A DNA stretch of 32,000 bases from Mycolicibacterium smegmatis (GCF_001457595.1 NZ_LN831039.1:1650001-1682000); one strand, 5' to 3'; numbered from the stretch's first letter, positions 1,136 to 19,299 are shown. Numbers and translations are program-made. Notes: generated by a model from the sequence alone, not told the origin.

Positions 1136-1144
1136 CGTCAACTC

Positions 1145-2059: not shown

Positions 2060-2065
2060 CTGCGC

Positions 2066-2980: not shown

Positions 2981-3010
2981 GACGCCCCCTTACATGTCTC
3001 AAGATGAGCG

Positions 3011-3037
3011 CCGCACCCGCTGGAACCGCGGGTGCGG
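3011..3037. other. GC-rich hairpin (10 bp perfect stem CCGCACCCGC/GCGGGTGCGG, 7 nt loop) 31 nt upstream of the methyltransferase operon start
   Basis: Read directly from the sequence: arms 3011-3020 and 3028-3037. The arm 10-mer CCGCACCCGC recurs at 3151-3160. Function unknown. Confidence 0.4.
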
Positions 3038-3331
3038 ATATTAGTTAGGCCCTATAACGAGCTGTCGCCGACTGTACGCTTCGAATCTGAAAAGAAACTT
3101 CGACCGAGTGGCAGTCGCCTGGGAGTCGGTCAGAACCGGCGCGGACAAGGCCGCACCCGCCATCGATGCGGGCCGACGCAAGGGCTCCTGTTACTCTCGT
3201 AGACTGTTTGACGGCTGAGTTCGCAGGCTGCGCGCCTGCAGACAAGCCGGACATGACTTGACCATTGACGCTGGACCCACCAGCCCCATTTGGCACGCCG
3301 CGCTGAGAAGGTCGGCTGCGCAGGAGGAAGA

Positions 3332-4657
3332 GTGCTTTCGGCTTTCATCTCGTCGCTGCGAACGGCCGACCTCAGACGCAAGATCCTGTTCACCTTGGGC
3401 CTGGTAATCCTTTACCGGGTCGGTGCCTCGATCCCGTCTCCCGGGGTGAACTACCCCAACGTTCAGCAATGCATCGCGCAGGTCAGCGGTGGCGACTCGG
3501 CTCAGATCTACTCGCTGATCAACCTGTTTTCCGGCGGTGCGCTGCTGCAGCTCACGGTGTTCGCGGTGGGCGTCATGCCCTACATCACCGCGAGCATCAT
3601 CGTGCAGCTGCTCACCGTGGTGATCCCGCGGTTCGAGCAGCTGCGTAAGGAAGGTCAGGCCGGCCAGGCCAAGATGACCCAGTACACGCGGTACCTGTCG
3701 ATCGCGCTCGCGATCCTGCAGGCCACCAGCATCGTGGCGCTCGCGGCCAACGGCGGCCTGCTGCAGGGCTGCTCGCTGGACATCATCCAGGACAGCTCGA
3801 TCTTCGGTCTGATCGTGATCGTGCTGGTCATGACCGCCGGTGCGGCCCTGGTCATGTGGATGGGCGAGCTGGTCACCGAGCGCGGCATCGGCAACGGCAT
3901 GTCGCTGCTGATCTTCGCCGGTATCGCCGCCCGCATCCCCGCCGAGGGCCAGACCATCCTGGAGAGCCGCGGCGGCGTCGTGTTCACCGCCGTGGTCATC
4001 GCCGCGCTGGTGATCATCATCGGCGTGGTGTTCGTCGAGCAGGGCCAGCGCCGCATCCCGGTCCAGTACGCCAAGCGCATGGTGGGCCGCAAGATGTACG
4101 GCGGCACCTCGACCTACCTGCCGCTCAAGGTCAACCAGGCCGGCGTCATCCCCGTCATCTTCGCGTCGTCGCTGATCTACATCCCGCACCTGATCACGCA
4201 GCTGATCCAGAGCGGGAGCTCGAACCCCGGCACCGGCTGGTGGGACAAGTTCGTCGCGGACTACCTGACCAACCCGGCCGACCCCGTTTACATCGCGGTC
4301 TACTTCGGCCTGATCGTGTTCTTCACGTACTTCTACGTGTCGATCACGTTCAACCCCGACGAGCGTGCCGACGAGATGAAGAAGTTCGGCGGCTTCATCC
4401 CGGGTATCCGTCCCGGCAAGCCGACGGCGGACTACCTGAGGTACGTGCTGAGCCGGATCACCCTGCCGGGCTCGATCTACCTCGGCGTGATCGCCGTTCT
4501 GCCCAACCTGTTCCTGGAGATCGGGAACACCGGTTCGGTACAGAACCTGCCGTTCGGCGGGACCGCGGTTCTGATCATGATCGGTGTCGGTCTCGACACC
4601 GTGAAGCAGATCGAGAGCCAGCTGATGCAACGTAACTACGAAGGGTTCCTGAAGTGA
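3332..4657 (+). CDS. secY: Preprotein translocase subunit SecY
   Basis: Multi-pass membrane protein with typical SecY sequence ([38 protein letters not shown]..., ...[18 protein letters not shown]). I trimmed the start to GTG 3332, preceded by AGGAGGA at 3322-3328, giving 441 aa. It is followed by adk and map as in mycobacteria. Confidence 0.95.
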
Positions 4658-5199
4658 GAGTCGTTCTGCTCGGACCGCCTGGGGCGGGCAAGGGTACGCA
4701 GGCGGAGAAGCTGTCCGAGAAACTCGGCATCCCGCAGATCTCCACCGGGGACCTCTTCCGCAAGAACATCGGTGACGGCACGCCGCTGGGCCTGGAGGCC
4801 AAGCGCTACCTCGACGCCGGCGACCTCGTGCCTGCCGAGCTGACGAACCGTCTGGTCGAGGACCGGATCGACCAGCCCGACGCGGCCGAGGGATTCATCC
4901 TCGACGGCTACCCGCGCTCGGTCGAGCAGGCCGGCGCGCTCAAGGACATGCTGGCCGCGCGCAACACCAAGCTCGACGCGGTGCTGGAGTTCCAGGTGTC
5001 CGAGGACGAGCTGCTGACGCGCCTCAAGGGCCGCGGCCGCGCCGACGACACCGACGAGGTGATCCGCAACCGCATGAAGGTCTACCGCGAGGAGACCGAG
5101 CCGCTGCTGGAGTACTACCGCGACGACCTGAAGACCGTAAACGCAGTAGGTGCGCTCGACGAGGTGTTCGCACGGGCGTTGAGCGCGCTCGGTCAGTGA
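4654..5199 (+). CDS. adk: Adenylate kinase
   Basis: 181 aa with P-loop [11 protein letters not shown] and a short (zinc-less) lid. The GTG start overlaps the secY stop (GTGA). Confidence 0.95.
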
Positions 5200-5218
5200 G
5201 CCCAAGCGGAGCGGTGCC

Positions 5219-6016
5219 GTGATCAATCTGCGTGGAAGACGTAAGCCCAAGGTGGTCACGCAACGCACGTCCGCGGAACTGGACGCCATGGCGGTGGCCG
5301 GTGCGCTCGTCGCGTCGGCCCTGCGGGCCGTCAAGACCGCGGCCGCACCCGGCGTCTCCACCCTGGAACTGGACCGCATCGCCGAAACGGTCATCCGCGA
5401 CGGCGGCGGCACGCCGTCGTTCCTCGGCTACCACGGCTTCCCGGCCAGCATCTGTGCGTCGGTCAACGAACGCGTGGTGCACGGCATCCCCTCGGCCGAC
5501 GAGGTGCTGGCCGCCGGCGACCTGGTCTCCATCGACTGCGGCGCGATCGTCGACGGCTGGCACGGCGACTCCGCCGTGACATTCGGCGTCGGCCCGCTGA
5601 TCCCTGCCGACGAGGCCCTATCGGAGGCGACCAAGGCCGCCATGGAGGCAGGCATCGCCGCAATGGTGCCCGGCAACCGGCTCACCGACGTCTCGCACGC
5701 CATCGAGGTGGAGACGCACGCCGCCGAGAAGCGCGACGACCGCAAGTACGGCATCGTCGCCAACTACGGCGGACACGGGATCGGACGCCAGATGCACATG
5801 GATCCGTTCCTGCCCAACGAGGGCGCCCCGGGCCGCGGACCGTACCTGGCCCCGGGTTCGGTGCTGGCCATCGAACCGATGCTGACCCTCGGCACCACCA
5901 AGACCGTGGTGCTCGACGACGAGTGGACCGTGGTCACCGCCGACGGCACCCGCGCCGCCCACTGGGAGCACACCGTCGCCGTCACCGAGGACGGCCCCCG
6001 CATCCTGACGCAGTAA
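5219..6016 (+). CDS. map: Methionine aminopeptidase type I
   Basis: 265 aa with the pita-bread fold signature: [34 protein letters not shown]. It follows secY-adk. Confidence 0.93.
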
Positions 6017-6079
6017 CACCTTCAGCAATTGCTGGAAAGCGCCGGAACCGTGATGTGGTCGACAGGCGCAAAGGTGTAA

Positions 6080-6107
6080 TGAACTGGATCACGCCCAACG
6101 TCGTATC
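6080..6107 (+). promoter_or_regulatory. Putative SigL-type (ECF) autoregulatory promoter: TGAACT-N16-CGTATC
   Basis: -35-like TGAACT at 6080-6085, a 16 nt spacer, and -10-like CGTATC at 6102-6107, lying 17 nt upstream of the sigL ATG. It resembles the published M. tuberculosis SigL consensus (-35 TGAACC, -10 CGTgtc; quoted from memory). Confidence 0.6.
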
Positions 6108-6124
6108 AATGACGGAGGTTGGGA

Positions 6125-6667
6125 ATGGAGGATCCGGAGGCCGCCATGATGCGGGCGCTCTATGACGAGCACGCCACCGCACTGTGGCGATACGCGCTGC
6201 GCCTGACCGGCGACCCCGCGCGTGCCGAGGATGTCGTGCAGGAGACATTGCTGCGCGCCTGGCGCCACCAACCCGACCTCCGCACCGGTGGCGGAGCCGA
6301 CGGTATCGCCGGTCCCGACCGCTCGCCACGGGCCTGGCTTTTCACCGTGGCACGCAACATGATTATCGATGAACGACGGAGTGCTCGTTTCCGCAACGAG
6401 ACCGACGTCCCCGACCCAGAACAGGTGGCCGATCACGCCACCTCCGACCAGGTGGATACCGCGTTGGACCGGCTTTTGTTGGGCACAGCTCTACGCCAGC
6501 TCTCCGATGACCATCGTGCGGTGATCCGACGCGCCTACTACCAGGGACTGACCACCGGGCAGATCGCGGCCGAGCTGCAGATACCCGAGGGAACCGTGAA
6601 ATCGCGGCTGCACTACGCCGTGCGCGCACTGAAACTGAGCTTGCAGGAGATGGGGGTGACACGATGA
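6125..6667 (+). CDS. sigL: ECF RNA polymerase sigma factor SigL
   Basis: Region 2 (ALWRYALRLTGDPARAEDVVQETLLRAW, AWLFTVARNMIIDERRSARF) and region 4 (TTGQIAAELQIPEGTVKSRLHYAVRAL) motifs are present. Start taken at ATG 6125 with GGAGG 6 nt upstream (the track ORF starts at TTG 6119). The secY-adk-map-sigL-rslA synteny matches M. tuberculosis. Confidence 0.85.
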   Translation: MEDPEAAMMRALYDEHATALWRYALRLTGDPARAEDVVQETLLRAWRHQPDLRTGGGADGIAGPDRSPRAWLFTVARNMIIDERRSARFRNETDVPDPEQVADHATSDQVDTALDRLLLGTALRQLSDDHRAVIRRAYYQGLTTGQIAAELQIPEGTVKSRLHYAVRALKLSLQEMGVTR

Positions 6668-7395
6668 CTCAATCCGAACCCCATCGAATCGGGCCAGTCG
6701 ACCCCGACCGATATTCGACATGGGACGCGGCGTATGTGCTCGGATCGCTGTCCAGCGAGGAGCGCCGCGAATACGAGGCGCACCTGACGACGTGCCCGCA
6801 GTGCCGCGCGGGCGTCGCCGAACTGAGCGGCATGCCCGCGCTGCTGTCGCTGATCGACCTCGACGACGTGCGCGCCATCGACGGCGAGCAGCCCGATTCG
6901 CCACTGCGCCCCGAGGTGCTGGACTCCGTGATGGCCGAGGTGGGCGCGCGCAGGCGCCGCACCCGGTGGCTGACGACATCGGTCGCCGCGCTGGCCGCGG
7001 TGCTGCTGGCGGTCGGGATCGTCGTGCTGGCCCGGCCCGAGACCTTCGGCCTGCAGCGCGGAACCGAACAGCAGACCGCGCAGATGCTGGAGATGTCGAA
7101 GGTCGCGCAGACGCCGATCAACGCCAGCATCGCGCTCACGGGCTACACCTGGGGCACCCGCATCGACATGGCGTGCTCGTACGGCGACTGGGGGAGCAAG
7201 GGCGCCCAACCGCAGGATCTGGGCATGGTGGTTGTCGGCCGCGACGGCAGCCGTGAACAGGTGGCCACCTGGCTGGGGCTCTCCGGGGCGACCGCACTGC
7301 CCAGTGGCAACACCCAGAAGCCGATGGACGACATTGCCGCCATCCAGATGGTGTCGGTCGCCGACGGGAAAGTTCTGCTCGAAAAGAAGCTCTGA
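6664..7395 (+). CDS. rslA: Anti-sigma-L factor, zinc-binding (ZAS) membrane protein RslA
   Basis: H-x3-C-x2-C motif (EAHLTTCPQCRAG), a single TM segment (WLTTSVAALAAVLLAVGIVVLA) and an extracytoplasmic C-terminal domain. The ATGA overlap with sigL indicates translational coupling. Confidence 0.85.
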   Translation: MTQSEPHRIGPVDPDRYSTWDAAYVLGSLSSEERREYEAHLTTCPQCRAGVAELSGMPALLSLIDLDDVRAIDGEQPDSPLRPEVLDSVMAEVGARRRRTRWLTTSVAALAAVLLAVGIVVLARPETFGLQRGTEQQTAQMLEMSKVAQTPINASIALTGYTWGTRIDMACSYGDWGSKGAQPQDLGMVVVGRDGSREQVATWLGLSGATALPSGNTQKPMDDIAAIQMVSVADGKVLLEKKL

Positions 7396-7437
7396 GACCC
7401 GCGATTCGGCGCGACACTCCCGGGCCCTGCTCGGAGT

Positions 7438-7454
7438 CAGCTGTTTGACAGCTG
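7438..7454 (+). terminator. Short hairpin CAGCTGT-TTG-ACAGCTG downstream of rslA (possible terminator or attenuator)
   Basis: Perfect 7 bp stem and 3 nt loop, 43 nt after the rslA stop and 39 nt before the next promoter-like element. There is no U-tract, as is common in mycobacteria. Confidence 0.35.
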
Positions 7455-7492
7455 CGCACCCGGTGGGAAAACAGCGAAAACGCCCATCGGTT

Positions 7493-7520
7493 TGAACCGG
7501 CCCTGCGCACCCCTCGTGTC
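7493..7520 (+). promoter_or_regulatory. Putative SigL-dependent promoter: TGAACC-N16-CGTGTC
   Basis: Exact match to the remembered SigL consensus hexamers (TGAACC 7493-7498, CGTGTC 7515-7520). The 16 nt spacing is the same as in the element upstream of sigL. It lies 29 nt upstream of ATG 7550, with GGGAG in between. Confidence 0.65.
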
Positions 7521-7549
7521 ACTAGGCACACGACGGGAGTAGGTGACAA

Positions 7550-9298
7550 ATGGCCAATGGGTGCAGAGTGGTGGACCACATCGTCGGCTGTCTCGCACAG
7601 AGCGGGATCAGCCACATCTTCGGGGTCGACGGGGCCAACATCGAGGACCTCTACGATGCGGCGTTCTTTCGTGACGACATCACCGCGGTGCTTGCCAAAC
7701 ACGAATTCTCCGCTGCCGCAATGGCAGACGGATACAGCCGCAGCGGCGCCGGGATCGGTGTGGTGGCCGCGACCTCGGGAGGCGGCTGCCTCAACACGGT
7801 GCCGGGGCTCGGCGAATCGCTCGCCAGCCGGGTCCCGGTGCTCGCGCTGATCGGACAACCGCCCACGACGCTCGACGGACAGGGTTCTTTCCAGGACACC
7901 AGCGGCGACAACGGCGCGCTCGACGCGCTTTCGTTGTTCTCGGCCGTGTCGGTGTACTGCCGCCGGGTGCTCTCACCCGATGCGATCCACACCGTGCTGC
8001 CGGAGGCGCTTGCCGCCGCACGTACCGGCGGACCGGCAGTGTTGTTGCTGCCCAAGGATGTTCAGCAGGCAGTGCTCGGTGAGCACGTCAACGGGCACGT
8101 TCCCGTCATGCAGCTGGGAACCCGGATCTCCGAGCTGACCATGATGGTGCGGGCACTGCGCCGCGCCGACGGGCCCATCACGATCTTCGCCGGGGAGCAG
8201 GTCGCCAGGGACGATGCCCGCGCCGAACTGGAACGGCTGCGCGCTACCCTGCGCGCCCGTATCGCCACCGTGCCCGACGCGAAAGACGTCGGCGGCACGC
8301 CGGGTTTCGGGTCGTCGTCGGCCCTCGGGGTGTGCGGGGTGATGGGACATCCGGGTGTCGTCGCGGCAGCCGCGGGAAGCGGGGCGTGCCTGCTGGTGGG
8401 GACCCGCATGACCGTGACCGCGCGCGCCGGCCTCGACGGTGTGCTGGGTTCGGTGCCCACGTACTCGATCGGCTCGCAGCAGCCGTACGTGCCCGCCACG
8501 CACGTGCACACCGACGACCTGCGCGGCGCGCTGACGATGCTGGCCGAGGCGCTGACCGGCAACGGCAGGCCGCACCAGATCCGCGTCCCGGATGTGGTGC
8601 CGCACACCGAACTACCGACACCACCCCATGACGGGCCCGGCATCCGGTACCGCGACGCGATGCGCGTGCTCGACCGGGCGCTGCCCGACGGTACCGACAT
8701 CGTCGTCGACGCGGGCAACATCGGGGCGTCGGCCATCCACCACCTGCCGGTGCGCCGCGACGGACGCTTCCTCGTCGCGCTCGGGATGGGCGGCATGGGG
8801 TACAGCTTCGGCGCGGGCATCGGCATGACCTTCCACCGCGCCGCCCGGCCCGACCCGCACGGGCAGCGGCGTACCGTGGTGATCGCCGGTGACGGGTCGT
8901 TCTTCATGCACGGCATGGAAATTCACACCGCCGTGCAGTACCGGCTCCCCATCACCTTCCTGCTGTTCGACAACCACGCACACGCCATGTGCGTCACACG
9001 CGAGCAGTTGTTCTACGGCGACCGCTACACCTACAACCGATTCGGCCCGAGCCATCTCGGCGCCGGACTCGCCGCGATGCTGCCCGGACTGACCGCGCTG
9101 GACGTCGACGACATCGATGATCTGTCCGCCGCACTCGACGCCGCGTTGCGCACCGACGGCCCGGTAGTCATCAGCGTCGAATGCTCGCCCGACGAAATCC
9201 CCCCGTTCGCAGCGTTTCTCGGCACCGCAACCGAAATCGCAACCGCAACCACCCCGAACACACAGGAGAACGATTCCCATGCCACTGCCCGCGCTTGA
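7550..9298 (+). CDS. Thiamine diphosphate-dependent enzyme (acetolactate synthase / benzoylformate or indolepyruvate decarboxylase-like)
   Basis: 582 aa. N-terminal PYR domain (GISHIFGVDGANIEDLYDA, catalytic-Glu context AKHEFSAAAMADGYSR) and C-terminal ThDP-binding motif GDGSFFMHGMEIHTAVQYRLPITFLLFDNHAHAM. Confidence 0.88.
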   Translation: MANGCRVVDHIVGCLAQSGISHIFGVDGANIEDLYDAAFFRDDITAVLAKHEFSAAAMADGYSRSGAGIGVVAATSGGGCLNTVPGLGESLASRVPVLALIGQPPTTLDGQGSFQDTSGDNGALDALSLFSAVSVYCRRVLSPDAIHTVLPEALAAARTGGPAVLLLPKDVQQAVLGEHVNGHVPVMQLGTRISELTMMVRALRRADGPITIFAGEQVARDDARAELERLRATLRARIATVPDAKDVGGTPGFGSSSALGVCGVMGHPGVVAAAAGSGACLLVGTRMTVTARAGLDGVLGSVPTYSIGSQQPYVPATHVHTDDLRGALTMLAEALTGNGRPHQIRVPDVVPHTELPTPPHDGPGIRYRDAMRVLDRALPDGTDIVVDAGNIGASAIHHLPVRRDGRFLVALGMGGMGYSFGAGIGMTFHRAARPDPHGQRRTVVIAGDGSFFMHGMEIHTAVQYRLPITFLLFDNHAHAMCVTREQLFYGDRYTYNRFGPSHLGAGLAAMLPGLTALDVDDIDDLSAALDAALRTDGPVVISVECSPDEIPPFAAFLGTATEIATATTPNTQENDSHATARA

Positions 9299-9959
9299 AG
9301 ACATCACCACCCACCGGGGCACCGCCGATCCGATCGACGGGCTGATCCGCATCGAGACCTCACCGAAGGAGGCCGCGACCCCGATCATCATGGAGATGAT
9401 GCGGTCGGTGTACCCGCACGAGCAGGTGTTCGGTGAGTACTGCACGGTCAACGACTACATCGCGTGCCCGCCCGACGAACTGTTCGACTACCTCGCCGAT
9501 ACCCGAAGCCTCGAGGAGTGGACCTACAGTCTGCGGGGATTCGCCACCACCGAGGAGCCCGGACTGTGGGTGGCCCGCGACCGCCTCGGTGAGGGCAGCG
9601 GTGGACCCGGCAGCGCGATCTACACGCGCACGGTCGCCAACCGTGACGCGATGACCGTCGACTACCACTGCGCCTGGGATCAGGGCAAGCACCTGTGGAT
9701 GATCTACCTGATGCGCATCGTCGACGCCCAGGTGGTGTTCGACAAGCCGGGATCGGTTGTGCTGTGGACCAATTGCCACCATCCCTTCTACGACGAGAAC
9801 CCGTACCCCGAGACCGCGCCGCCCGGGCGACCGGTCTGGGTCGGTGACTTCTGGGACATGTTCGGCCCCGGTCACCTGCTGGAACTGAAGAACCTCAAGG
9901 CGATCGCCGAGTACCGGCACCGCAACGGACTGCCGCTCACCCCGGCCTGGATGAAATGA
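9279..9959 (+). CDS. Hypothetical protein, possibly SRPBCC/START-like (polyketide cyclase/dehydratase-type fold)
   Basis: 226 aa with strong GC3 bias and AGGAGA about 10 nt upstream. It overlaps the upstream gene by 20 nt. The segment CTVNDYIACPPDELFDYLADTRSLEEWTYSL resembles the start of SRPBCC domains; the fold call is by eye only. Confidence 0.7.
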   Translation: MPLPALEDITTHRGTADPIDGLIRIETSPKEAATPIIMEMMRSVYPHEQVFGEYCTVNDYIACPPDELFDYLADTRSLEEWTYSLRGFATTEEPGLWVARDRLGEGSGGPGSAIYTRTVANRDAMTVDYHCAWDQGKHLWMIYLMRIVDAQVVFDKPGSVVLWTNCHHPFYDENPYPETAPPGRPVWVGDFWDMFGPGHLLELKNLKAIAEYRHRNGLPLTPAWMK

Positions 9960-10990
9960 GCATCCCCATGAACACCACCACCCCCGTGAGCCTCGTCGAC
10001 GTTTCGACCTACCTTCCCGGTGAACCGATCGGCGCCGAGTACTACGCGCAGTTCGCCGAGACCGACGACCTGCGGGACAACCTGATGTTCCGCGCACCGC
10101 GGTTCCGGCACCACGTCGCGCCCGACGAGACCGCCACCGACATGATCGAGCGCGCCGCGGCCGGACTGATCGAACGCCACGGCGCCGACACGGTGCAGGG
10201 TGCCGACGTGCTGATCACCCACACGCAGATGCCCGACATGCCGTTCTACGGCGGCGGCGGCGGCATCGCGCACCGCCTCGGCATGAAACCGAACTGGGTG
10301 ATCGACCTGCACAACGGAGGCTGCGCGGCGTTTGTCCTCGGCATGAAAGTGGCCCGTACGCTGCTGGCCTCGGGCGAAGGCCACACCGCGGTCATCGCGG
10401 TGGCGCAGAACGCCGCGGGCCAGATCTTCGACCAGGAGACCATCCGCCGCAAGGCCCAGGCGTCGGTGCCCGGCGACGGCGCGGCCGTCGGCCTGGTGAC
10501 GGTGTCGGACGCCTCACCGATCCTGGACGTCGAGTGCCGCACCTACGGCGAGTACGCCGGTGACATGACCATCGCGTCGGATCCGCCACGCAAGTGGTGG
10601 CAGCCCGGACCGGGGGAGGGCTACATCGGGTTCACGGAAAGCAAGATCACCAAGGTGCTGGCCCGCGGCAACCGGCAGGTGCCCGAGGTGTCGTATGCCG
10701 TGTGCGACCGGATCGGCATCCACCCCAGGGACATCGACCTGTTCGTCACCAACCAGCCCAACCGGGTGTTCCTGCGCAACTGGCGCGAGGCCCTTGAGTT
10801 GCCTGCCGAACGCCACGTCGACACATTCGACACGTGCGGCAACCTCTTCGGCGCGGGCATCCCGATCAACTTCGACCGCGCGGTCACCGACGGGCGCGTG
10901 AAGGCCGGTGACACGGTGCTGATGGCGGCGTTCGCGCACGCAGGGGACTTCGCCGGCGCGGCCGCGGTGCGCTGGGGAGGCCGGGACTGA
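9956..10990 (+). CDS. KAS III (FabH)-like thiolase-fold enzyme with an atypical active site
   Basis: 344 aa. It aligns by eye to FabH: nucleophile Cys in HNGGCAAFVLG, then VPGDGAAVGLV and CGNLFGAGIP (Asn retained). The FabH motif PHQAN reads TNQPN here. ATGA overlap with the upstream gene. Confidence 0.85.
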   Translation: MSIPMNTTTPVSLVDVSTYLPGEPIGAEYYAQFAETDDLRDNLMFRAPRFRHHVAPDETATDMIERAAAGLIERHGADTVQGADVLITHTQMPDMPFYGGGGGIAHRLGMKPNWVIDLHNGGCAAFVLGMKVARTLLASGEGHTAVIAVAQNAAGQIFDQETIRRKAQASVPGDGAAVGLVTVSDASPILDVECRTYGEYAGDMTIASDPPRKWWQPGPGEGYIGFTESKITKVLARGNRQVPEVSYAVCDRIGIHPRDIDLFVTNQPNRVFLRNWREALELPAERHVDTFDTCGNLFGAGIPINFDRAVTDGRVKAGDTVLMAAFAHAGDFAGAAAVRWGGRD

Positions 10991-12024
10991 TGGCCGCCCC
11001 GCGTGGCGCCCTGGTGGAGGCGGTCGACGCGCTTCCCCCGGCGGTCAACCCACTGGCGTTGTCACTCAACGAGTTTCCGTATCCGCCGCTACCCGCGGTG
11101 AAGGCCGCGCTGAGCGCCGCGGTGGATGCGGCCAACCGCTATCCGGAGTTCCTTCCCGAACGGTTGCGGTCGCTGATCGCCGGCCGGGTAGGCGTCGACG
11201 AAAGGCAGGTGATCATCGGCGTCGGCGCGACCGGCGTCATCATGCAGGTGCTGCACGCGGTCACCAGCCCCGGTGACACCATGGTGATGTCGGCGCCCAC
11301 GTTCGACGGGTACCCGATCTTCGCGCAGATGGCCCGGCTGCGGTCGGTGACCGTCGACCTGGACGTGTACGGCCACCACAATCTGCACGCGATGGCCGAC
11401 GCCGCGCGCGATGCCCGGGTGGTGGTGGTGTGCCGTCCGCACAACCCCACCGGCACGATCGAACCCGCCGAGGACATCGAGCGGTTCCTGGAGAGCATCC
11501 CCGAGGACACCGTGGTGCTGCTCGACGAGGCATATGCCGAATTCCTCGGCCCCGCCAACCGGATCGACGGGCCGCGGCTGGTCGAACGGTTCCGCAATGT
11601 CGTGGTGGTGCGCACGTTCTCGAAGGCCTACGGTCTGGCCGGCCTGCGGATCGGCTACGGCTTCTGCGCACCGCAACTGGCGCGTCAACTGTGGACCATG
11701 CAGTTGCCGTTCGGGATCGGGCTTCCCGCACTGGTCGCGGTCGCGGCATCTTATGACGCCGAAGGCCAGCTGCGGCAACGCATCCGGATGATCTCCGCCG
11801 AGCGCCGGTTCCTGCAGATGCGGCTGCGCTCGATGGGCGTGTACAGCACCGACGGGCAGGCCAACTTCGTGTACCTGCCCGCGACGGGCGTGCCGTGGCA
11901 CGACGTGTTCGACGATGCGGGGCTCAAGGTGCGGCACTATGCCGACGGCGGCGTGCGCATCACCGTGGGCACCAGGGAATCCACGCGTGAGGTGCTGCGC
12001 GCAACGCGCCTGGCTTTGCGGTGA
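10990..12024 (+). CDS. PLP-dependent aminotransferase, class I/II, histidinol-phosphate/aromatic (HisC-like)
   Basis: 344 aa with CRPHNPTGT and the Schiff-base lysine motif RTFSKAYGLAGLRIGYG. TGATG overlap with the upstream gene. Confidence 0.88.
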   Translation: MAAPRGALVEAVDALPPAVNPLALSLNEFPYPPLPAVKAALSAAVDAANRYPEFLPERLRSLIAGRVGVDERQVIIGVGATGVIMQVLHAVTSPGDTMVMSAPTFDGYPIFAQMARLRSVTVDLDVYGHHNLHAMADAARDARVVVVCRPHNPTGTIEPAEDIERFLESIPEDTVVLLDEAYAEFLGPANRIDGPRLVERFRNVVVVRTFSKAYGLAGLRIGYGFCAPQLARQLWTMQLPFGIGLPALVAVAASYDAEGQLRQRIRMISAERRFLQMRLRSMGVYSTDGQANFVYLPATGVPWHDVFDDAGLKVRHYADGGVRITVGTRESTREVLRATRLALR

Positions 12025-12059: not shown

Positions 12060-12581
12060 GTGCCCTCGTCACCGGACAGCTTCGACCACGCCGACCACAC
12101 GGATCCCATCGCCCTGGCACGCGCCAACTGGGAGGCGGCCGGGTGGGGTGACGTGGCCGACGGCATGGTGGCGGTGACCTCGGTCATGCGGGCCCACCAG
12201 ATCCTGCTGGCCCGCGTCGAGAACGCACTGCGGCCCTACGATCTGAGCTTCTCGCGGTTCGAACTGCTGCGCCTGCTGGCCTTCAGCCGGTCCGGGGCCC
12301 TGCCCATCACCAAGGCGTCGGACCGGCTGCAGGTGCACGTCACCAGCGTCACGCACGCCATCCGGCGGCTGGAGGCCGCAGGCCTGGTGGAACGCGTCCC
12401 GCACCCCACCGACGGCCGCACCACGCTGGTGCGGATCACCGACCTGGGGCGTTCGACCGTCGAGGACGCGACCGTGACGCTCAACAAGCAGGTGTTCGCC
12501 GATGTGGGGATGTCCGACGAGGAGTCGCGCGCGCTCGCGGCGTCGATCGAGACGTTGCGCCGCAATTCGGGTGACTTCTGA
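12060..12581 (+). CDS. MarR-family transcriptional regulator (Rv0737-like position)
   Basis: 173 aa with a winged-helix region: LSFSRFELLRLLAFSRSGALPITKASDRLQVHVTSVTHAIRRLEAAGLVERVPHPTDGRTTLVRIT. The GTG start is uncertain. Confidence 0.8.
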   Translation: MPSSPDSFDHADHTDPIALARANWEAAGWGDVADGMVAVTSVMRAHQILLARVENALRPYDLSFSRFELLRLLAFSRSGALPITKASDRLQVHVTSVTHAIRRLEAAGLVERVPHPTDGRTTLVRITDLGRSTVEDATVTLNKQVFADVGMSDEESRALAASIETLRRNSGDF

Positions 12582-12608: not shown

Positions 12609-12636
12609 GTGAACGCCGCTCGCGGGGCGTGTTCAC
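12609..12636. terminator. Imperfect hairpin between convergent MarR and kinase genes
   Basis: GTGAACGCC...GGCGTGTTCAC, a stem with a 2 nt bulge. It overlaps the kinase stop codon at 12633-12635. Confidence 0.3.
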
Positions 12637-13874
12637 GGCAGTTTCGTCGAGTTCGGCGCGGGCTCGTGCGAGGGCAGCGGGATGGTCGCGGTGACCGCGG
12701 TGCCCGCGCCGGGCCGTGAGCGGATGTTGAGCCGCCCGCCCACGATCTCGGCGCGTTCGGCCATCGACAGCAGGCCGTACCCGCTCATCTCGTCACTGCC
12801 GAGCGGATGTTCGAATGTGTCGAAACCGATTCCGTCATCGACGATTTCGAGTCTCGCGATACCGTCCTCGACCGCGAAGGTCAGACGCGCGGTGGTGGCG
12901 CGGGCATGCTTGACGACGTTCTGCAGGCATTCCTGCGCGATGCGGTAGAGCGCGAGCTCGATGTGGTCGGGCACGCGGGTATCGGCCAGGTCGACGTCGA
13001 GGTCGACCTGGGGGATCGACCTGGCCAGGCTCGCCAGCCCGCCCGAGAGGCCGAGGTCGTCGAGCACCGGCGGGCGCAGCCCGCTGATCGCGGCGCGCGC
13101 CTCCTGCAGCGTCAGGTCCGCGAGTTCGCGGGCCTTGCCCAGCTGTTCGGCCACGGCCCGCGGGTCGTCGGCCGCGCGGGCCGCGGCGTCGAGCCGGTAG
13201 GACAGCGTCACGAGCCGCTGTGAGATGCCGTCGTGGATGTCGGCCGCGAGCCTGCGCCGCTCGAGTTCCTGTGCCTCGATGACCTGCTCGACGAAGTTCT
13301 CGTGCGCGCGTTCGCGGGCCACGAGTTGCCGGTGCAGACGGGCCTGGTGCAACGCTCCGGCGATGAGCCTGCCGATCACCACGAGCAATTCCACATCACG
13401 CGGCGTGAACTCGCGTCGCCGCACGGTGTGCACGTTGAGCACGCCGACCAACCCGCCCGGCTCGGCCTCCATCGGCACCGACACCATCGACGTGAAATCC
13501 CGCCCGCGCAGCGACTCGAACGGCATGTAGCGGGGATCGGCCTCCTTGTCGTGGCTGATCACCACGGGCTCGCAATGATCGGCGACCCATCCGGAGATGC
13601 CCTGCCCGATGGGCAGCCGGATCTTGCCGACCTCGCTGTCGAACGGCGGTGTGGCCCCGGCCAACGTCAGCGACCGGTCGGAATCGTCGAGCACGTGCAC
13701 GAAGCACACGTCGGTGCCGGTCGCCGCGGTGATCATGCGCGCCGCGGCCGCGGCGAGCGGTTCCACCCCCGGCCCGCTGGACGCGGCCTGGATGAGCTCG
13801 CGCAGCAACGCCAGCTCGCGGTCGGCGTCGACGAGGTCGCGCACGGGTTTCACGGCGCGTTTCGCGGCGTTCAC
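12633..13874 (-). CDS. Cytoplasmic GAF-domain sensor histidine kinase (HisKA_3 / NarL-partner type)
   Basis: 413 aa with no obvious TM segment. It has an N-terminal GAF-like region, the H-box RRRLAADIHDGISQRLV and HATPase motifs (QECLQNVVKHA, DDGIGF, GYGLLSMAERA). The GTG start overlaps the regulator stop (GTGA). Confidence 0.88.
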   Translation of the reverse strand: MNAAKRAVKPVRDLVDADRELALLRELIQAASSGPGVEPLAAAAARMITAATGTDVCFVHVLDDSDRSLTLAGATPPFDSEVGKIRLPIGQGISGWVADHCEPVVISHDKEADPRYMPFESLRGRDFTSMVSVPMEAEPGGLVGVLNVHTVRRREFTPRDVELLVVIGRLIAGALHQARLHRQLVARERAHENFVEQVIEAQELERRRLAADIHDGISQRLVTLSYRLDAAARAADDPRAVAEQLGKARELADLTLQEARAAISGLRPPVLDDLGLSGGLASLARSIPQVDLDVDLADTRVPDHIELALYRIAQECLQNVVKHARATTARLTFAVEDGIARLEIVDDGIGFDTFEHPLGSDEMSGYGLLSMAERAEIVGGRLNIRSRPGAGTAVTATIPLPSHEPAPNSTKLP

Positions 13875-14533
13875 TGGTAGATGCCTTCACGCAGCGCCGT
13901 GGCCACCGCGCCCGCGCGGTCGCTCACACCCAGCTTGCGGTAGATCGAGCGCAGGTGGGTCTTCACGGTCTCCTCGCCGATCACGAGCTTGTTGGCGATG
14001 CCGCGGTTGGACAGCCCCGCCACCACGAACGACAGGATCTCGCTCTCGCGCTGCGTGAGCCCCTGCCGTGCGCCCGGCCAGAACTCGTCACGCTGAAGGC
14101 GCGCCGCGGTACCTGCGGCTCTGGCCGCCATGACCGGGTCGATCGCGGTCTCGCCGCTGTGCGCGAACTCCAACTGGTGCACCAGATCGTCGCTGCTGAT
14201 GCTCTTGAGCAGGTAACCCGCCGCGCCCACCCGCAGCGCCTGGAACAGGTACTGCTCGTCGTCGTAGACCGACAGCATCACGACCTTGCGTTCCGGATTG
14301 CGTTCGAGCAGCGTCTGGCACAGGTCCAGGCCGCTGACACCCTGCATCCGGACGTCGCACAAGACGATGTCGGGGTCGAGTTCCTCGACCACGCTGACGG
14401 CCTTCTCGGCGCCGACGGCCTGCCCGACCACCAGCACGCGGTCGGAGAACGCGGCGAGCATGGCCTTGAGCCCCTCGATGACCATCTCGTGGTCGTCGAC
14501 CAGCACAAGGCGCACCGGGCTGGAGGGCGCCAT
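13871..14533 (-). CDS. NarL/LuxR-family response regulator
   Basis: Trimmed from the track ORF 13871-14743 to ATG 14533 (MAPSSPVRLVLVDDHEMV...). Receiver Asp in IVLCDVRMQG; C-terminal LuxR HTH LTQRESEILSFVVAGLSNRGIANKLVIGEETVKTHLRSIYRKLGV. Confidence 0.9.
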   Translation of the reverse strand: MAPSSPVRLVLVDDHEMVIEGLKAMLAAFSDRVLVVGQAVGAEKAVSVVEELDPDIVLCDVRMQGVSGLDLCQTLLERNPERKVVMLSVYDDEQYLFQALRVGAAGYLLKSISSDDLVHQLEFAHSGETAIDPVMAARAAGTAARLQRDEFWPGARQGLTQRESEILSFVVAGLSNRGIANKLVIGEETVKTHLRSIYRKLGVSDRAGAVATALREGIYQ

Positions 14534-14631
14534 GGCAACACGATAGATGTGCGGGAACCGTCGGTGGCTCAACTCCCGCGCGCAATTCGCCTGCCGAATC
14601 CCCCGTAGGGGGGACGCGGGAACGCTGTGAC

Positions 14632-15456
14632 ATGCGCCACTCTGACGGTGTGTCCCCTGTACAGGAGAAAGCATGGCGTGCCGGCAGGTTCTGGTGGGAC
14701 TGTACGCAGTCGGCTGACCCCGGTGCGCATCCGCTGCGAGCACTGATCCTCGATCTCGACGCGATGTCGGATCTCGACCTCGACGGGCACCGCGTCGTGT
14801 TCAACGCGGCGTTCGCCGCGCACGGCCTGGAACTCACATGGTCACCCGCGCGCTACCGGCAGCTGCTGGCGCTGCACGACGAACGCCAGCGCGTCGGCGC
14901 CGAGCTGCGCAAACGCTGCGTCGGACCCGAGTGCGACGTACTGGTGGAACTGCTGGCCGACGAGATCTGCGCGACCAAGGACATGATCTTCGACGAGATG
15001 ATCCTGGACCTGGGGCCCTCGCCGCGGGCGGGCCTGGTCGACCTCGTGATGGACGCGTTCGCCGACGGGGTTCCGGTGGGCGTGGTCTCGGGCGGCAGGC
15101 GGCGCTGGGTCGAACCGCTCGTGCGTCAGTTGGTGGGCGACGGACTCGTCGACACCATCGTGACCGGTGACGACGTGAGCGACACCGCCGCACGCGGGGA
15201 GGCCTACCGCCACGCACTGTGGGAACTCGGCGTCGCGCCGCACGAGGCACTCGGCATCGCGGGGTCCGGCGCTGCCCTGCGCGCAGCCAACGCCACCGGG
15301 CTGGGCACTGTGCTCGTGGGCGCCGACACCGATGGAGCGGGCCGGCCCGCCATCGCGGTGCGCGCGGACTACGCGTGTGCCGACGGCCTGCGCCTGACCA
15401 CGTGCCGACGGCTGCTCGGTCAGTGGTGGGCCCAGCACAGCCCGTCCGCGGCCTGA
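14632..15456 (+). CDS. HAD-superfamily (CbbY-like) protein, possibly catalytically degenerate
   Basis: ALILDLDAMSDLDLDGHRVVFNAAFAAHGL resembles the CbbY N-terminus. The start is uncertain (ATG 14632 or GTG 14650). The later HAD motifs look eroded by eye. Confidence 0.65.
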   Translation: MRHSDGVSPVQEKAWRAGRFWWDCTQSADPGAHPLRALILDLDAMSDLDLDGHRVVFNAAFAAHGLELTWSPARYRQLLALHDERQRVGAELRKRCVGPECDVLVELLADEICATKDMIFDEMILDLGPSPRAGLVDLVMDAFADGVPVGVVSGGRRRWVEPLVRQLVGDGLVDTIVTGDDVSDTAARGEAYRHALWELGVAPHEALGIAGSGAALRAANATGLGTVLVGADTDGAGRPAIAVRADYACADGLRLTTCRRLLGQWWAQHSPSAA

Positions 15457-15484
15457 AACCCGCCCAGATCTCTCCGACGCAGCG

Positions 15485-15517
15485 CTGAGGGGCAGATCCG
15501 CGGGATCTGCCCCTCAG
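15485..15517. terminator. Bidirectional intrinsic terminator-like hairpin (15 bp perfect stem, 3 nt loop)
   Basis: CTGAGGGGCAGATCC-GCG-GGATCTGCCCCTCAG lies between the convergent HAD-like gene (stop 15456) and mmsB (stop 15537). Confidence 0.75.
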
Positions 15518-15536
15518 TGCAACTCGTGCGTCCGGA

Positions 15537-16409
15537 CTAGCCGCGCAGCAGTTCGATGACCGCGCTGAAGTCCTTGTCCGCGTGCTCTTCGTTGAACTTG
15601 GCGTAGATCTCGGCGGCGTGGCTGCCGAGCGGTGCGCTGGCACCGGTCGACGACACCGCCGCCATCGCCAGGCCCAGATCCTTGTTCATCAGCGACGTCG
15701 CGAAGCCCGGCTTGAAATCGTTGTTGGCCGGTGACGTCGGCACCGGACCGGGAACCGGGCAGTTGGTGTGCACCGACCAGCAGTTGCCGGTGGCGCCGGT
15801 GATCACGTCGAACAGCGACTGCGCGGACAGACCCAGCTTTTCGGCGAGCACGAACGCCTCACCGATCGCGATCTGCTGCACCGCCAGCACCATGTTGTTG
15901 CACAACTTGGCCGCCTGCCCGGTACCGGACCCGCCGCAGTGAATGATCTTGCCCGCCATGGGATCGAGGATCGGACGTGCGCGCTCCACGGCGTCGTCCT
16001 CACCGCCCACCATGAACGCGAGCGTGCCCGCGGTGGCACCCTTCACGCCGCCGGAGACCGGCGCGTCGAGTTGGGCGTGGCCCTTCTCGAGGGCCTGTGT
16101 GTGGACCGTGCGGGCGTCGTCGACCGAGATGGTCGAGGTGTCGATGAACAGCGTGCCCGTCGGCGCCGCGGGCAGGACCTCGGCGTAGCAGGACTTCACG
16201 ATGTCGCCGTTGGGCAACGACGTGATGACCACCTCGGCTTCGGACGCGGCCTCGGCACCGGTGCCGAACACCTTGATGCCCTTGGCCTCCGCGGCCTCCC
16301 TGGAGGCGGGCATCGGGTCGAAACCCCGCACGGTGTGGCCCGCGGCGGCGAGGTTGGCCGCCATCGGGCCGCCCATGTGGCCCAATCCCAGGAACGCAAT
16401 GGTCGCCAT
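15537..16409 (-). CDS. mmsB: 3-hydroxyisobutyrate dehydrogenase
   Basis: Trimmed from the track ORF 15537-16856 to ATG 16409 (MATIAFLGLGHMGGPMAANL, a Rossmann motif), giving 290 aa, with GGAGA upstream. It is the last gene of the mmsA-fadE9-mmsB arrangement. Confidence 0.9.
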   Translation of the reverse strand: MATIAFLGLGHMGGPMAANLAAAGHTVRGFDPMPASREAAEAKGIKVFGTGAEAASEAEVVITSLPNGDIVKSCYAEVLPAAPTGTLFIDTSTISVDDARTVHTQALEKGHAQLDAPVSGGVKGATAGTLAFMVGGEDDAVERARPILDPMAGKIIHCGGSGTGQAAKLCNNMVLAVQQIAIGEAFVLAEKLGLSAQSLFDVITGATGNCWSVHTNCPVPGPVPTSPANNDFKPGFATSLMNKDLGLAMAAVSSTGASAPLGSHAAEIYAKFNEEHADKDFSAVIELLRG

Positions 16410-16425
16410 CTGATCTCCTGTCCTG

Positions 16426-19282: not shown

Positions 19283-19299
19283 TCGTTATTATTTTGTCC

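Follow-up and report, generated by a model that had tools for sequence, protein, structure and literature searches.

Organization of the locus

The analysed stretch of DNA (the window, 32,000 nucleotides from Mycolicibacterium smegmatis, whose genome has 68% GC) carries an operon of four ORFs, all on the plus strand, at 7550-9298, 9279-9959, 9956-10990 and 10990-12024, with products of 582, 226, 344 and 344 aa, respectively. In this order, they encode a CqsB3/NzsH-like ThDP-dependent carboligase (probably MSMEG_1488; assigned by homology to CqsB3 and Pfam), a carbazole-synthase-like cyclase of the CqsB2/NzsI family with a Bet v1/SRPBCC fold (probably MSMEG_1489; match to PDB 6IPV), a CqsB1/NzsJ-like KAS III-like condensing enzyme with the triad Cys123-Asn266-Asn296 (probably MSMEG_1490; BLASTP to CqsB1) and a CqsB7/NzsD-like aminotransferase of the HisC fold (probably MSMEG_1491; homology to CqsB7). 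The GC3 values of 0.85-0.92 fall in the range usual for genuine genes. The translational coupling proposed in a preliminary description of this DNA is borne out exactly: the cyclase ATG at 9279, preceded by AGGAGA, opens a 20-nt overlap that ends with the ThDP stop at 9298, the cyclase and KAS genes share ATGA at 9956-9959, and the KAS and aminotransferase genes meet in TGATG at 10988-10992. Pfam likewise agrees with the domains named there, namely TPP_enzyme_N/M/C, ACP_syn_III with ACP_syn_III_C, and Aminotran_1_2. A literature search found no published description of the mycobacterial operon. A search for expression of MSMEG_1488-1491 in sigL or rslA mutants returned nothing, and the sole transcript note found in the literature for these genes concerns the induction of MSMEG_1488 by G-quadruplex ligands.

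Upstream on the same strand lies the gene for an ECF sigma factor (6119-6667, probably MSMEG_1486; Pfam Sigma70_r2/r4), which is orthologous to SigL (272 bits against the cut-off of 202 for NCBIfam PRK09645) and keeps the synteny with secY-adk-mapA seen in M. tuberculosis. It is followed by a gene for an RslA-like, zinc-associated anti-sigma factor (6664-7395, plus strand; Pfam zf-HC2) with the arrangement H40-x3-C44-x2-C47, seen as HLTTCPQC in the translation; the CXXC motif of M. tuberculosis RslA is a redox switch (PMC2877774). Beginning 35 nt downstream of the operon, also on the plus strand, is the gene for a MarR regulator (12060-12581; Pfam MarR), the Rv0737/Ms_1492 orthologue, whose product is identical to ABK71249.1 of M. 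smegmatis mc2155. This gene is syntenic in 49 complete loci, and binding of the regulator to the promoter of sigL-rslA has been reported (PMC13002591). The earlier description had placed the operon between rslA and the MarR gene, and Pfam supports these flanks.

Relatives of the four proteins

The ThDP enzyme aligns with CqsB3 over its full length (34% identity, 580 aligned columns, E 7e-73). It scores above the Pfam cut-offs for TPP_enzyme_N and TPP_enzyme_C, and the central TPP_enzyme_M reaches 27.9 bits, under its 30.4-bit cut-off; ~80 orthologues retain the catalytic Glu52 and, in the ThDP motif, the GDG and the Asn. A bacterial carbazole core, the product of which is a tricyclic carbazole to which tryptophan, pyruvate and an acyl unit contribute, comprises a CqsB3/NzsH-homologous carboligase next to the cyclase, and the operon has such a carboligase. 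Acetolactate synthase (IlvB/AlsS) was rejected as an identity for this enzyme, the best model, TIGR00118, giving 186.7 bits against a 538-bit cut-off and the other acetolactate synthase models of NCBIfam being missed by still more.

The cyclase ORF has no Pfam match. It matches PDB 6IPV (CqsB2) at E 6.2e-45, with 41% identity to CqsB2, and its AlphaFold model (pLDDT 80.5) returned the same structure as the top Foldseek match (E 3.6e-20), followed by PYR/PYL and other START/Bet v1 (SRPBCC) proteins at probability 1.00. The protein thus has the helix-grip fold and internal pocket of SRPBCC/Bet v1-like proteins, which had been correctly guessed for this ORF. Residues D101, Y143, Y171, H199 and E202 correspond to E105, Y144, Y172, H206 and E209 of CqsB2 and are invariant in 85/85 orthologues, except Y171, which is found in 84/85. 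The Tyr144, Tyr172, His206 and Glu209 of carbazole synthase and an acidic residue at position 105 are therefore all represented, the latter as Asp, which also occupies this position in 21 of 111 CqsB2-like sequences. The Mycobacteriales cyclases form the most divergent branch seen, with ~40% identity to CqsB2 compared to 56-66% for the myxobacterial, cyanobacterial and Legionella clades, and they share a 4-residue deletion and a C-terminal tail of their own; this divergence counts against a carbazole product.

In BLASTP, the KAS III-like enzyme scored 138 bits against CqsB1 (E 7e-43) versus 68 bits against the classical KAS III CqsB5. Homology to CqsB1/NzsJ is clear, at 26% identity, and the Cys-His-Asn triad is absent: all 82 Mycobacteriales orthologues scored have Asn in place of the His, which CqsB1 and all non-Mycobacteriales homologues examined (Sorangium, cyanobacterial and Legionella) retain. 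Given the low identity, the reaction could differ from that of CqsB1. FabH was rejected (PRK09352, 117.9 versus 249 bits; TIGR00747, 94.8 versus 292 bits), the replaced His being a further mark against it.

The aminotransferase shares 41% identity with CqsB7 (E 1e-80, 236 BLASTP bits), and its best PDB match is 4R2N, a 'putative phenylalanine aminotransferase' (184 phmmer bits), the two scores coming from different programs and giving no ranking between these relatives. Of 77 orthologues, 76 have the PLP lysine, K212. HisC was rejected (TIGR01141, 246.3 versus 276.55 bits; PRK03321, 294.6 versus 374 bits), and a his operon context is lacking.

In these comparisons, the closest characterised relative found for each protein is the corresponding enzyme of the Streptomyces carquinostatin/neocarazostatin carbazole core, and the quartet reads as a stripped-down, diverged copy of the Streptomyces carbazole alkaloid enzyme set. 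The proteins carry the public names 'acetolactate synthase', '3-oxoacyl-ACP synthase III family' and 'histidinol-phosphate aminotransferase 2', and the NCBIfam models that they match best are those for ilvB, fabH and hisC, as would be the case for primary-metabolism paralogues (IlvB, FabH, HisC) clustered by chance, or for such metabolism, with an unrelated lipid-binding SRPBCC protein. We consider this very improbable, because all of these models are missed by a wide margin and the coupled genes are inherited together with a CqsB2 homologue in three genera, where their surroundings differ. Moreover, no ilvN/ilvC, fab or his partner genes lie nearby. The simpler Ehrlich or indolepyruvate-decarboxylase route that the preliminary description had offered as an alternative leaves both the cyclase and the KAS unexplained.

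A SigL-type promoter precedes the operon

Directly upstream of the quartet, 29 nt before the ThDP ATG, we found a promoter of the SigL type (7493-7520, plus strand), overlooked in the earlier reading, in which TGAACC (-35) and CGTGTC (extended -10) are separated by a 16-nt spacer. It is the sole exact TGAACC-N16-CGTGTC match in a scan of the window. The motif recurs upstream of the ThDP gene in 64 of 80 related loci, with a 16-nt spacer in all of these and a median distance to the gene of 29 nt, against a background expectation of ~0.02 per 166 nt. A relaxed scan of the window's intergenic sequence (16-nt spacer, at most one mismatch per hexamer) returned only this site and TGAACT-N16-CGTATC at 6080-6107 (plus strand), a putative autoregulatory SigL-type promoter upstream of sigL. 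The identical motif and spacer stand upstream of sigL in 46 of 61 related loci, and this occurrence of the hexamer supports TGAACC, which is reportedly the -35 consensus of SigL. In the operon promoter, CGTGTCAC compares with CGTGTCAG of the M. tuberculosis P-sigL; the -10 region matches and fits the published SigL -10 consensus CG-TGN(C/A)AG (PMC6372665). With TGAACC, a spacer of ~16 nt and the CGTGTC extended -10, the site has the elements of a SigL-regulon promoter, and transcription of the operon is predicted from this motif to be SigL-dependent.

The quartet is a conserved and probably old unit

The cassette is kept intact across Mycobacteriales. The gene-neighbourhood comparison proposed in the preliminary description shows the four genes conserved as a unit: they are complete in 65 of the 80 closest loci (at the same position in 58) and also occur together in Nocardia and Tsukamurella, there in unrelated contexts. 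Loci retrieved separately from M. attenuatum and Mycolicibacter terrae have the quartet as well, in the latter directly after mapA and without sigL-rslA, and M. shimoidei retains a remnant at the locus. A gene for the cyclase is present in at least 562 species genomes, usually at the same locus. Across 49 complete syntenic loci, the median identities of the cyclase (84%) and KAS (83%) equal those of adk and mapA, with sigL at 73%; purifying selection is evident from these identities.

In M. tuberculosis, by contrast, the operon is absent and Rv0736 and Rv0737 are adjacent, as indicated by gene numbering and PMC13002591. The block had accordingly been taken for an accessory insertion in a conserved locus, a view at odds with its shared position and with the conservation of its cyclase and KAS, which equals that of adk and mapA. 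Loss of an old block from the M. tuberculosis lineage agrees better with these observations and is the more likely history, given the number of genomes with the cyclase at this locus, which argues against a local insertion. The cassette can evidently move, since extra copies lie elsewhere in chromosomes, mostly without the SigL motif (for example, L035, L053, L054, L067, L072, L073 and L077), and since the Nocardia and Tsukamurella cassettes have other surroundings. Such mobility might suggest a recent accessory island that the M. smegmatis lineage acquired between rslA and the MarR gene, with an incidental link to SigL. We regard this as improbable, however: the shared position spans Mycolicibacterium and Mycobacterium (M. 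attenuatum and the M. shimoidei remnant), the M. terrae quartet follows mapA, there is no GC or skew anomaly, the quartet diverges in step with its neighbours, the promoter motif is conserved along with the genes, and the second copies in L041 and L056 are accompanied by paralogous sigL-rslA pairs.

Predicted pathway

In the published carbazole route, an aminotransferase yields an aryl-pyruvate, which is followed by ThDP-dependent acyloin-type carboligation, thiolase-fold condensation and SRPBCC cyclisation (PMC7466098). The enzyme logic sketched in the preliminary description is essentially this route; its statement that no characterised pathway has exactly this set, which left the genes an orphan group, did not survive, for the set is that of CqsB7/B3/B1/B2 (NzsD/H/J/I), the closest characterised relatives found. 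We favour a reading, probably correct, in which the four genes form an operon under a SigL-dependent promoter and encode a minimal, diverged bacterial carbazole-core pathway. The HisC-fold aminotransferase would convert an aromatic amino acid, most likely L-tryptophan, into an aryl-pyruvate (indole-3-pyruvate). The KAS III-like enzyme would load its Cys123 with an acyl group taken from a housekeeping acyl-CoA or acyl-ACP and join this group to the pathway's keto acid by decarboxylative condensation, and the CqsB2-like cyclase would then close and aromatise the new ring to give a catechol- or ortho-quinone carbazole-type product.

The same folds might instead carry out other chemistry, acting on another 2-oxo acid (phenylpyruvate, 4-hydroxyphenylpyruvate or a branched-chain one) or using the KAS as an acyltransferase, with an acylated acyloin or another ring as the product. 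We hold this to be the less probable course. In its favour, the His-to-Asn change in the KAS is invariant here and absent elsewhere, the KAS shares little identity with CqsB1, the aminotransferase has as its best solved relative a protein labelled phenylalanine aminotransferase, the cyclase clade is divergent in sequence and in its deletion and tail, and a supply of 3-hydroxybutyryl-ACP is missing. Nevertheless, the cyclase retains the catalytic residues assigned to the closure of the carbazole ring (E105 as Asp), the Asn of the KAS could still provide the oxyanion-site hydrogen bond given by His, and the relative matched by the aminotransferase, CqsB7, is a Trp aminotransferase. In addition, general chemistry would make it harder to close the ring onto benzene than onto indole C2.

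Besides the cyclase divergence mentioned above, the KAS without its triad His and the absence of a 3-hydroxybutyryl-ACP supply pair and of tailoring genes count against the carbazole reading. A further point against it is that we know of no carbazole from mycobacteria, and literature searches for one found none. The quartet is kept in hundreds of mycobacterial species and missing from M. tuberculosis. From this wide retention, together with the carbazole-type set and the conserved SigL-type promoter beside sigL-rslA, the predicted small-molecule pathway probably belongs to the SigL stress response.

Comparison with known systems

The carquinostatin A/neocarazostatin A core consists of CqsB7-B3-B1-B2 (NzsD-H-J-I), and all four types have homologues in the mycobacterial operon (PMC7466098). 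The cyclase gene adjoins both the ThDP and the KAS genes, likewise in cqsB1-B2-B3, although the order is ThDP-cyclase-KAS-aminotransferase in mycobacteria and KAS-cyclase-ThDP...aminotransferase in Streptomyces cqs, and the KAS triad is Cys-Asn-Asn rather than the Cys-His-Asn of CqsB1. The mycobacterial operon lacks the ACP (CqsB6/NzsE), the classical KAS III (CqsB5/NzsF), the prenyltransferase (CqsB4/NzsG) and the P450. The dedicated ACP and classical KAS III that supply 3-hydroxybutyryl-ACP are present in the cqs cluster, recovered for this comparison as locus L081, whereas the whole 32-kb window has neither a PP-binding gene nor a second KAS III gene. Neither an ACP nor a second KAS III flanks the quartet in L083, L085, L086 and L090, where the called genes were inspected, the remaining loci having been searched just for genes homologous to those of the window. 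Finally, cqs is a secondary-metabolite island, while the mycobacterial quartet is translationally coupled and lies in the core genome beside secY-adk-mapA, behind an ECF-sigma-type promoter.

Section 4 of PMC7466098 points out orphan NzsH/I/J-type trios in S. cattleya, Sorangium cellulosum and Scytonema, and we also found ThDP-KAS-cyclase trios in Sorangium, Gloeotrichia (cyanobacteria) and Legionella loci (L087-L089). These trios and the mycobacterial operon have in common a core of ThDP enzyme, KAS III-like enzyme and cyclase without the full Streptomyces tailoring set, and the Legionella trio, which has no ACP or second KAS III, suggests that a minimal core is viable elsewhere. The aminotransferase lies within the operon in Mycobacteriales, whereas the cyanobacterial trio locus has a Glu/Leu/Phe/Val-type dehydrogenase instead.

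The earlier analogy to scytonemin has substance, in that ScyA/ScyB/ScyC share the logic of indole-3-pyruvate, ThDP-dependent acyloin coupling and a dedicated cyclase. The mycobacterial cyclase misses the ScyC model NF035924 by far (17.9 bits, E 0.0016; cut-off 400 bits), and the relation runs only through intermediate sequences, as a distant family member, P0221, matches ScyC at 5e-32. In scytonemin synthesis, a dehydrogenase takes the place of the aminotransferase, a KAS III-like step is lacking, and ScyA couples two aryl-pyruvates.

The SigL regulon of M. tuberculosis comprises sigL-rslA, mpt53-Rv2877c, pks10-pks7 and Rv1139c-Rv1138c. The sigma/anti-sigma pair, the MarR neighbour and a CGTGTC-type extended -10 like that of P-sigL are common to M. 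tuberculosis and M. smegmatis, and the operon genes, by the prediction made here from the motif, would resemble pks10-pks7 as a case of SigL-controlled small-molecule synthesis.

Organization of the operon and its neighbourhood

The quartet consists of four forward-strand genes, which encode a three-domain ThDP enzyme (Pfam; 7550–9298, 582 aa), a cyclase without a Pfam family (ORF2; 9279–9959, 226 aa), a KAS III-like enzyme, here KAS, with the Pfam domains ACP_syn_III and ACP_syn_III_C (9956–10990, 344 aa) and a class I/II aminotransferase (Pfam; 10990–12024, 344 aa). On inspection, the four ORFs and their junctions lay exactly where the preliminary description had placed them. The ThDP and cyclase genes overlap by 20 nt, with an AGGAGA Shine-Dalgarno sequence ahead of the ATG at 9279, the cyclase and KAS genes share an ATGA (9956–9959), and the KAS and aminotransferase genes meet in a TGATG (10988–10992).

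Located 5′ of the quartet are secY, adk and mapA, together with genes for an ECF sigma factor scoring above the NCBIfam PRK09645 cut-off and for a zf-HC2 anti-sigma factor with an H40-x3-C44-x2-C47 motif; a MarR gene lies 3′. By exact-sequence look-up, the MarR protein is identical to M. smegmatis mc2155 ABK71249.1, and in mc2155 the ThDP enzyme is represented by ABK71806.1 and the aminotransferase by ABK69695.1. MSMEG_1486 is a sigma factor, and the homologue of Rv0737, a MarR protein, is Ms_1492 (PMC13002591); from the numbering between these two, together with ABK71806.1 and ABK69695.1, we infer that the quartet corresponds to MSMEG_1488–1491.

Further out, three tandem genes for LCM-family (leucine carboxyl methyltransferase-like) SAM methyltransferases (239–2980, reverse strand) lie upstream of secY, and nearly all related loci carry two to four copies of such genes. 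Directly after the MarR gene come a GAF-domain histidine kinase and a LuxR-type response regulator (12633–14743, reverse strand), a pair kept in most related loci with kinase identities of 83–93%. Because the longest ORF of a neighbouring HAD gene (14632–15456) runs 112 nt into the LuxR-type regulator gene, the HAD gene probably starts further downstream than this ORF.

Identity of the four enzymes

Public annotation of the quartet is generic or misleading (acetolactate synthase, HisC2, hypothetical protein). A primary-metabolism reading, which would make these genes ilvB, fabH and hisC, was rejected on curated NCBIfam cut-offs and gene context: the ThDP enzyme scored 187 bits against an acetolactate synthase cut-off of 538, KAS scored 118 and 95 bits against FabH cut-offs of 249 and 292, and the aminotransferase scored 246 and 295 bits against HisC cut-offs of 277 and 374.

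For ORF2, which had no match in Pfam and only a sub-threshold ScyC match in NCBIfam, the decisive match came from a PDB sequence search and was to CqsB2, the carbazole synthase of Streptomyces exfoliatus (PDB 6IPV; E = 6.2e-45 over residues 37–217). An AlphaFold model of ORF2 (pLDDT 80.5) likewise had 6IPV as its top Foldseek match (E = 3.6e-20), followed by Bet v1/START proteins, which bore out an initial guess that the protein has an SRPBCC fold. A protein with 100% identity to CqsB2 then led us to the cqs cluster (L081), with which we compared the window proteins pairwise. Identity was 34% over the full length between the ThDP enzyme and CqsB3 (E = 7e-73), 41% between the cyclase and CqsB2 (E = 1e-50), 41% between the aminotransferase and CqsB7 (E = 1e-80) and 26% between KAS and CqsB1 (138 bits, E = 7e-43); the classical KAS III of that cluster, CqsB5, reached 68 bits with KAS. 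The set had been regarded as an orphan, which is incorrect, as its members are homologues of CqsB7, CqsB3, CqsB1 and CqsB2.

CqsB2 itself is recognised by no NCBIfam model. The window cyclase (9279–9959) has a weak ScyC match (E = 0.0016), and among its distant relatives, which include the database proteins P0221 and P0234, the former (304 aa, two domain copies) matches the NCBIfam ScyC model at 5e-32. These matches point to a distant homology between the CqsB2 family and ScyC, the scytonemin cyclase. The nearest solved relatives of the ThDP enzyme are BbmA and CsmA (PDB 8X3X/8X3Z; E = 2e-44 and 3e-39), one entry having been solved with the bound ligand CBOA; nothing relevant on a BbmA/CsmA pathway was found in the open-access literature.

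A predicted SigL promoter

An exact TGAACC-N16-CGTGTC at 7493–7520, separated from the ATG at 7550 by 29 nt, is the sole exact match in the 32 kb. With at most one mismatch per hexamer, 64 of 80 loci had the motif 5′ of the ThDP gene, the spacer measuring 16 nt in every case, and 46 of 61 had it 5′ of sigL, the window instance there being TGAACT-N16-CGTATC (6080–6107); the background was 0.02 per 166-nt window with true sites counted in. TGAACC is said to be the SigL −35 consensus, reportedly going back to Hahn and colleagues in 2005, and this assignment has internal support because the hexamer recurs at the autoregulated sigL promoter position. The −10 region of the operon promoter in the window is CGTGTCAC. 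That of M. tuberculosis P-sigL is CGTGTCAG, and the experimentally revised SigL −10 consensus is CG followed by T-G-N-C/A-A-G (PMC6372665). A simple scan of the window for sigma-70 promoters and terminators returned nothing meaningful. Judging from these promoter sequences, SigL very probably controls the operon directly.

Second quartet copies distant from sigL mostly lacked the motif, including that in L053, an M. peregrinum strain; motif exceptions were L066 (a metagenome-assembled genome), the second pair of M. shimoidei and Nocardia (CGTATC). Two loci (L041 and L056) carry a paralogous sigL-rslA pair with a second quartet, and the quartet of Mycolicibacter terrae (L090) is preceded by a weaker TGAACC-N16-CGTTTA.

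Oxidation of the CXXC-zinc site of M. tuberculosis RslA leads to SigL release (PMC2877774), and the RslA of the window keeps the CXXC-zinc motif. Binding of the adjoining MarR to the sigL promoter has been reported (PMC13002591), and this regulator may belong to a SigL-operon circuit.

Distribution and origin

The cyclase belongs to a small family, with 169 representatives, many of them fragments, at the 50%-identity level of 1.84 billion proteins, and a close relative of the window cyclase occurs in at least 562 species-representative genomes. In the 80 closest loci, all four genes were adjacent in 65, sigL lay within 4.5 kb upstream in 58, and the full series sigL-rslA-ThDP-cyclase-KAS-aminotransferase-MarR was present in 49, mostly after secY-adk-mapA. 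Median identities across these 49 complete syntenic loci were 84% for the cyclase, 83% for KAS, 82% for adk, 84% for mapA, 73% for sigL and 63% for rslA; cyclase and KAS identities thus equal those of adk and mapA and exceed those of sigL and rslA, which argues for strong purifying selection.

The quartet had been proposed to be an accessory insertion on the basis of its absence between rslA and Rv0737 in M. tuberculosis. A recent insertion is contradicted both by the synteny (58 of 80 loci) and by the divergence pattern. No compositional anomaly was seen at the quartet, whose GC content at third codon positions (0.85–0.92) is the same as that of adjoining housekeeping genes. The slow grower M. 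attenuatum has the quartet at the same locus, Mycolicibacter terrae has it directly after mapA (L090, 4447–12948) with no sigL-rslA at the locus, and the four-gene cassette occurs intact, but in unrelated contexts, in Nocardia uniformis and Tsukamurella. On the simplest reading, the quartet is an old block of the Mycobacteriaceae and the M. tuberculosis lineage has lost it. Second copies in L035, L053, L054, L066 and other loci indicate that the cassette can be duplicated or moved.

Several loci showed variant arrangements. An ABC ATPase gene overlaps the end of the L090 quartet by 4 nt and is accompanied by one for an FtsX-type permease; the pair may be an exporter. The second quartet of L053 (8317–12800; flanks 2771–8119 and 14895–16413) sits beside der, cmk, scpA and parA, with an O-methyltransferase and an FMN reductase ~2 kb downstream that could be tailoring genes. 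In M. shimoidei (L075), the gene directly after rslA encodes a cyclase (80% identity), and ThDP, KAS and aminotransferase genes are missing there (8465–10666); a separate ThDP gene and second cyclase (60% identity) lie 8 kb downstream (18066–20500) with their own TGAACC-N16-CGTGTC. Going by gene content, this slow grower appears to have a rearranged or eroding form of the locus. The ThDP enzyme and cyclase of L066 are read as one 830-aa ORF (8174–10666, forward strand), and several database proteins of 549–587 aa (P0142, P0235, P0236 and P0389) have a C-terminal cyclase domain; either ThDP and cyclase are naturally fused in these cases, or a frameshift has led to reading through the 20-nt overlap. 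Gloeotrichia echinulata (L088, 5055–11239) has a ThDP-KAS-cyclase trio with an O-methyltransferase and, instead of an aminotransferase, a Glu/Leu/Phe/Val-type dehydrogenase (ScyB-like), and Legionella dresdenensis (L089, 8001–11340) has cyclase-ThDP-KAS only. From these two loci, the core trio is far more widespread than Streptomyces.

Proposed function and significance

By homology, the first step would be formation of an aryl-pyruvate, most likely indole-3-pyruvate, by the aminotransferase. In the third, a housekeeping acyl-CoA or acyl-ACP would acylate KAS Cys123 and KAS would join this acyl group to the keto acid in a decarboxylative condensation, with Asn266 and Asn296 presumably standing in for the His/Asn oxyanion site; in the fourth, ring closure and aromatisation by the cyclase would yield a catechol and, on its oxidation, an ortho-quinone. 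Radical scavenging is known for bacterial carbazole-3,4-quinones, and one may speculate that oxidative stress, through SigL release, would lead to an antioxidant or redox-active carbazole-type metabolite. An FAD-dependent aromatic-ring hydroxylase followed by a TetR regulator (19294–21401, forward strand; ~7 kb downstream) is too distant to link to the operon, although the hydroxylase could in principle act on an aromatic product. The related loci, 20 kb long with 10-kb flanks, stop short of this position, and the pair gave no hits in them.

Taken jointly, these elements suggest a reading that we consider rather unlikely in its entirety: that the ancestral role of the SigL-RslA-MarR module, retained in most environmental species, was to control the synthesis of a redox-active carbazole-type catechol/quinone, that M. 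tuberculosis kept the regulators and lost the chemistry, and that the Cys-Asn-Asn KAS is a new mechanistic subclass. Oxidation of the RslA CXXC-zinc site would free SigL to fire the TGAACC-N16-CGTGTC promoter, the four enzymes would turn tryptophan, pyruvate and a housekeeping acyl thioester into a radical-scavenging small molecule, the adjacent MarR (the Rv0737 orthologue) might sense that molecule, and the invariant Cys-Asn-Asn arrangement would define the new subclass of KAS III-like condensing enzymes.

The pathway type is already known, and a review has pointed out orphan NzsH/I/J trios in S. cattleya, Sorangium and Scytonema (PMC7466098). In open-access papers we found no description of a mycobacterial homologue, the SigL link or a Cys-Asn-Asn KAS, a prior description elsewhere being possible, and nothing functional on MSMEG_1486–1491 or a mycobacterial carbazole cluster; the only mention of quartet genes that we found lists MSMEG_1488 among genes induced by G-quadruplex ligands. 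To our knowledge, carbazole-synthase chemistry has so far been characterised in Streptomyces only. What appears new is a predicted minimal carbazole-synthase cassette that is conserved across Mycobacteriales and has an apparent SigL promoter; M. smegmatis carries it and M. tuberculosis lacks it.

A compact carbazole-type set would thereby belong to the core genome in at least 562 Mycobacteriales species, the laboratory model M. smegmatis among them, and the poorly understood SigL regulon would gain a concrete, testable chemical output in non-tuberculous mycobacteria. The co-occurrence of sigL, rslA and Rv0737 in M. tuberculosis would be the remnant of a regulator-plus-pathway module. Both a natural His-to-Asn KAS III-like variant and a minimal four-enzyme route without a dedicated ACP would be useful for enzymology and biocatalytic carbazole synthesis, and the predictions on the operon are open to standard M. 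smegmatis genetics and LC-MS.

Comparison with the Streptomyces carbazole core

The window carries the same four enzyme types as the Streptomyces carbazole core reviewed by Kobayashi and Kuzuyama (PMC7466098). There, the aminotransferase CqsB7/NzsD converts Trp to indole-3-pyruvate, the KAS III-like CqsB1/NzsJ performs a decarboxylative condensation of the acid with 3-hydroxybutyryl-ACP, CqsB1 reportedly also taking 3-hydroxybutyryl-CoA, and CqsB2/NzsI closes ring A (PMC7466098); the order of reactions that we had first deduced from the enzyme types agrees with this published route. Cyclase residues Tyr143, Tyr171, His199 and Glu202 correspond to CqsB2 Y144, Y172, H206 and E209. CqsB2 Glu105 is Asp in the window cyclase; we rejected this change as a mycobacterial peculiarity, and it is not distinctive because 21 of 111 CqsB2-like sequences also have Asp.

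The differences are nevertheless substantial. The order ThDP-cyclase-KAS-aminotransferase, translationally coupled, differs from that of the Streptomyces pathway. Whereas the cqs cluster includes CqsB4 (prenyltransferase), CqsB5 (KAS III), CqsB6 (ACP) and a P450, the 32-kb window contains no ACP, second KAS III, prenyltransferase or P450, and none of these types flanks the quartet among the called genes of four further loci (L083, L085, L086 and L090); the remaining related loci were screened with the window's own proteins only. The KAS triad positions are Cys123, Asn266 and Asn296, the canonical His being Asn in all 82 Mycobacteriales orthologues scored, whereas CqsB1 and the Sorangium, cyanobacterial and Legionella homologues read THQPN. 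Mycobacteriales cyclases share ~40% identity with CqsB2, compared with 56–66% for myxobacterial, cyanobacterial, acidobacterial and Legionella members, have a 4-residue deletion and a C-terminal tail of their own, and are the most divergent branch seen.

With an invariant His-to-Asn change, a KAS of low identity to CqsB1, no acyl-supply genes and a divergent clade, there is room for the main alternative, that the homology holds and the product differs, through another aryl-pyruvate or an acyltransferase-type reaction. Because KAS departs from the canonical triad and the acyl-supply genes are missing, we regard the quartet as a variant of the carbazole core rather than a plain member of it.
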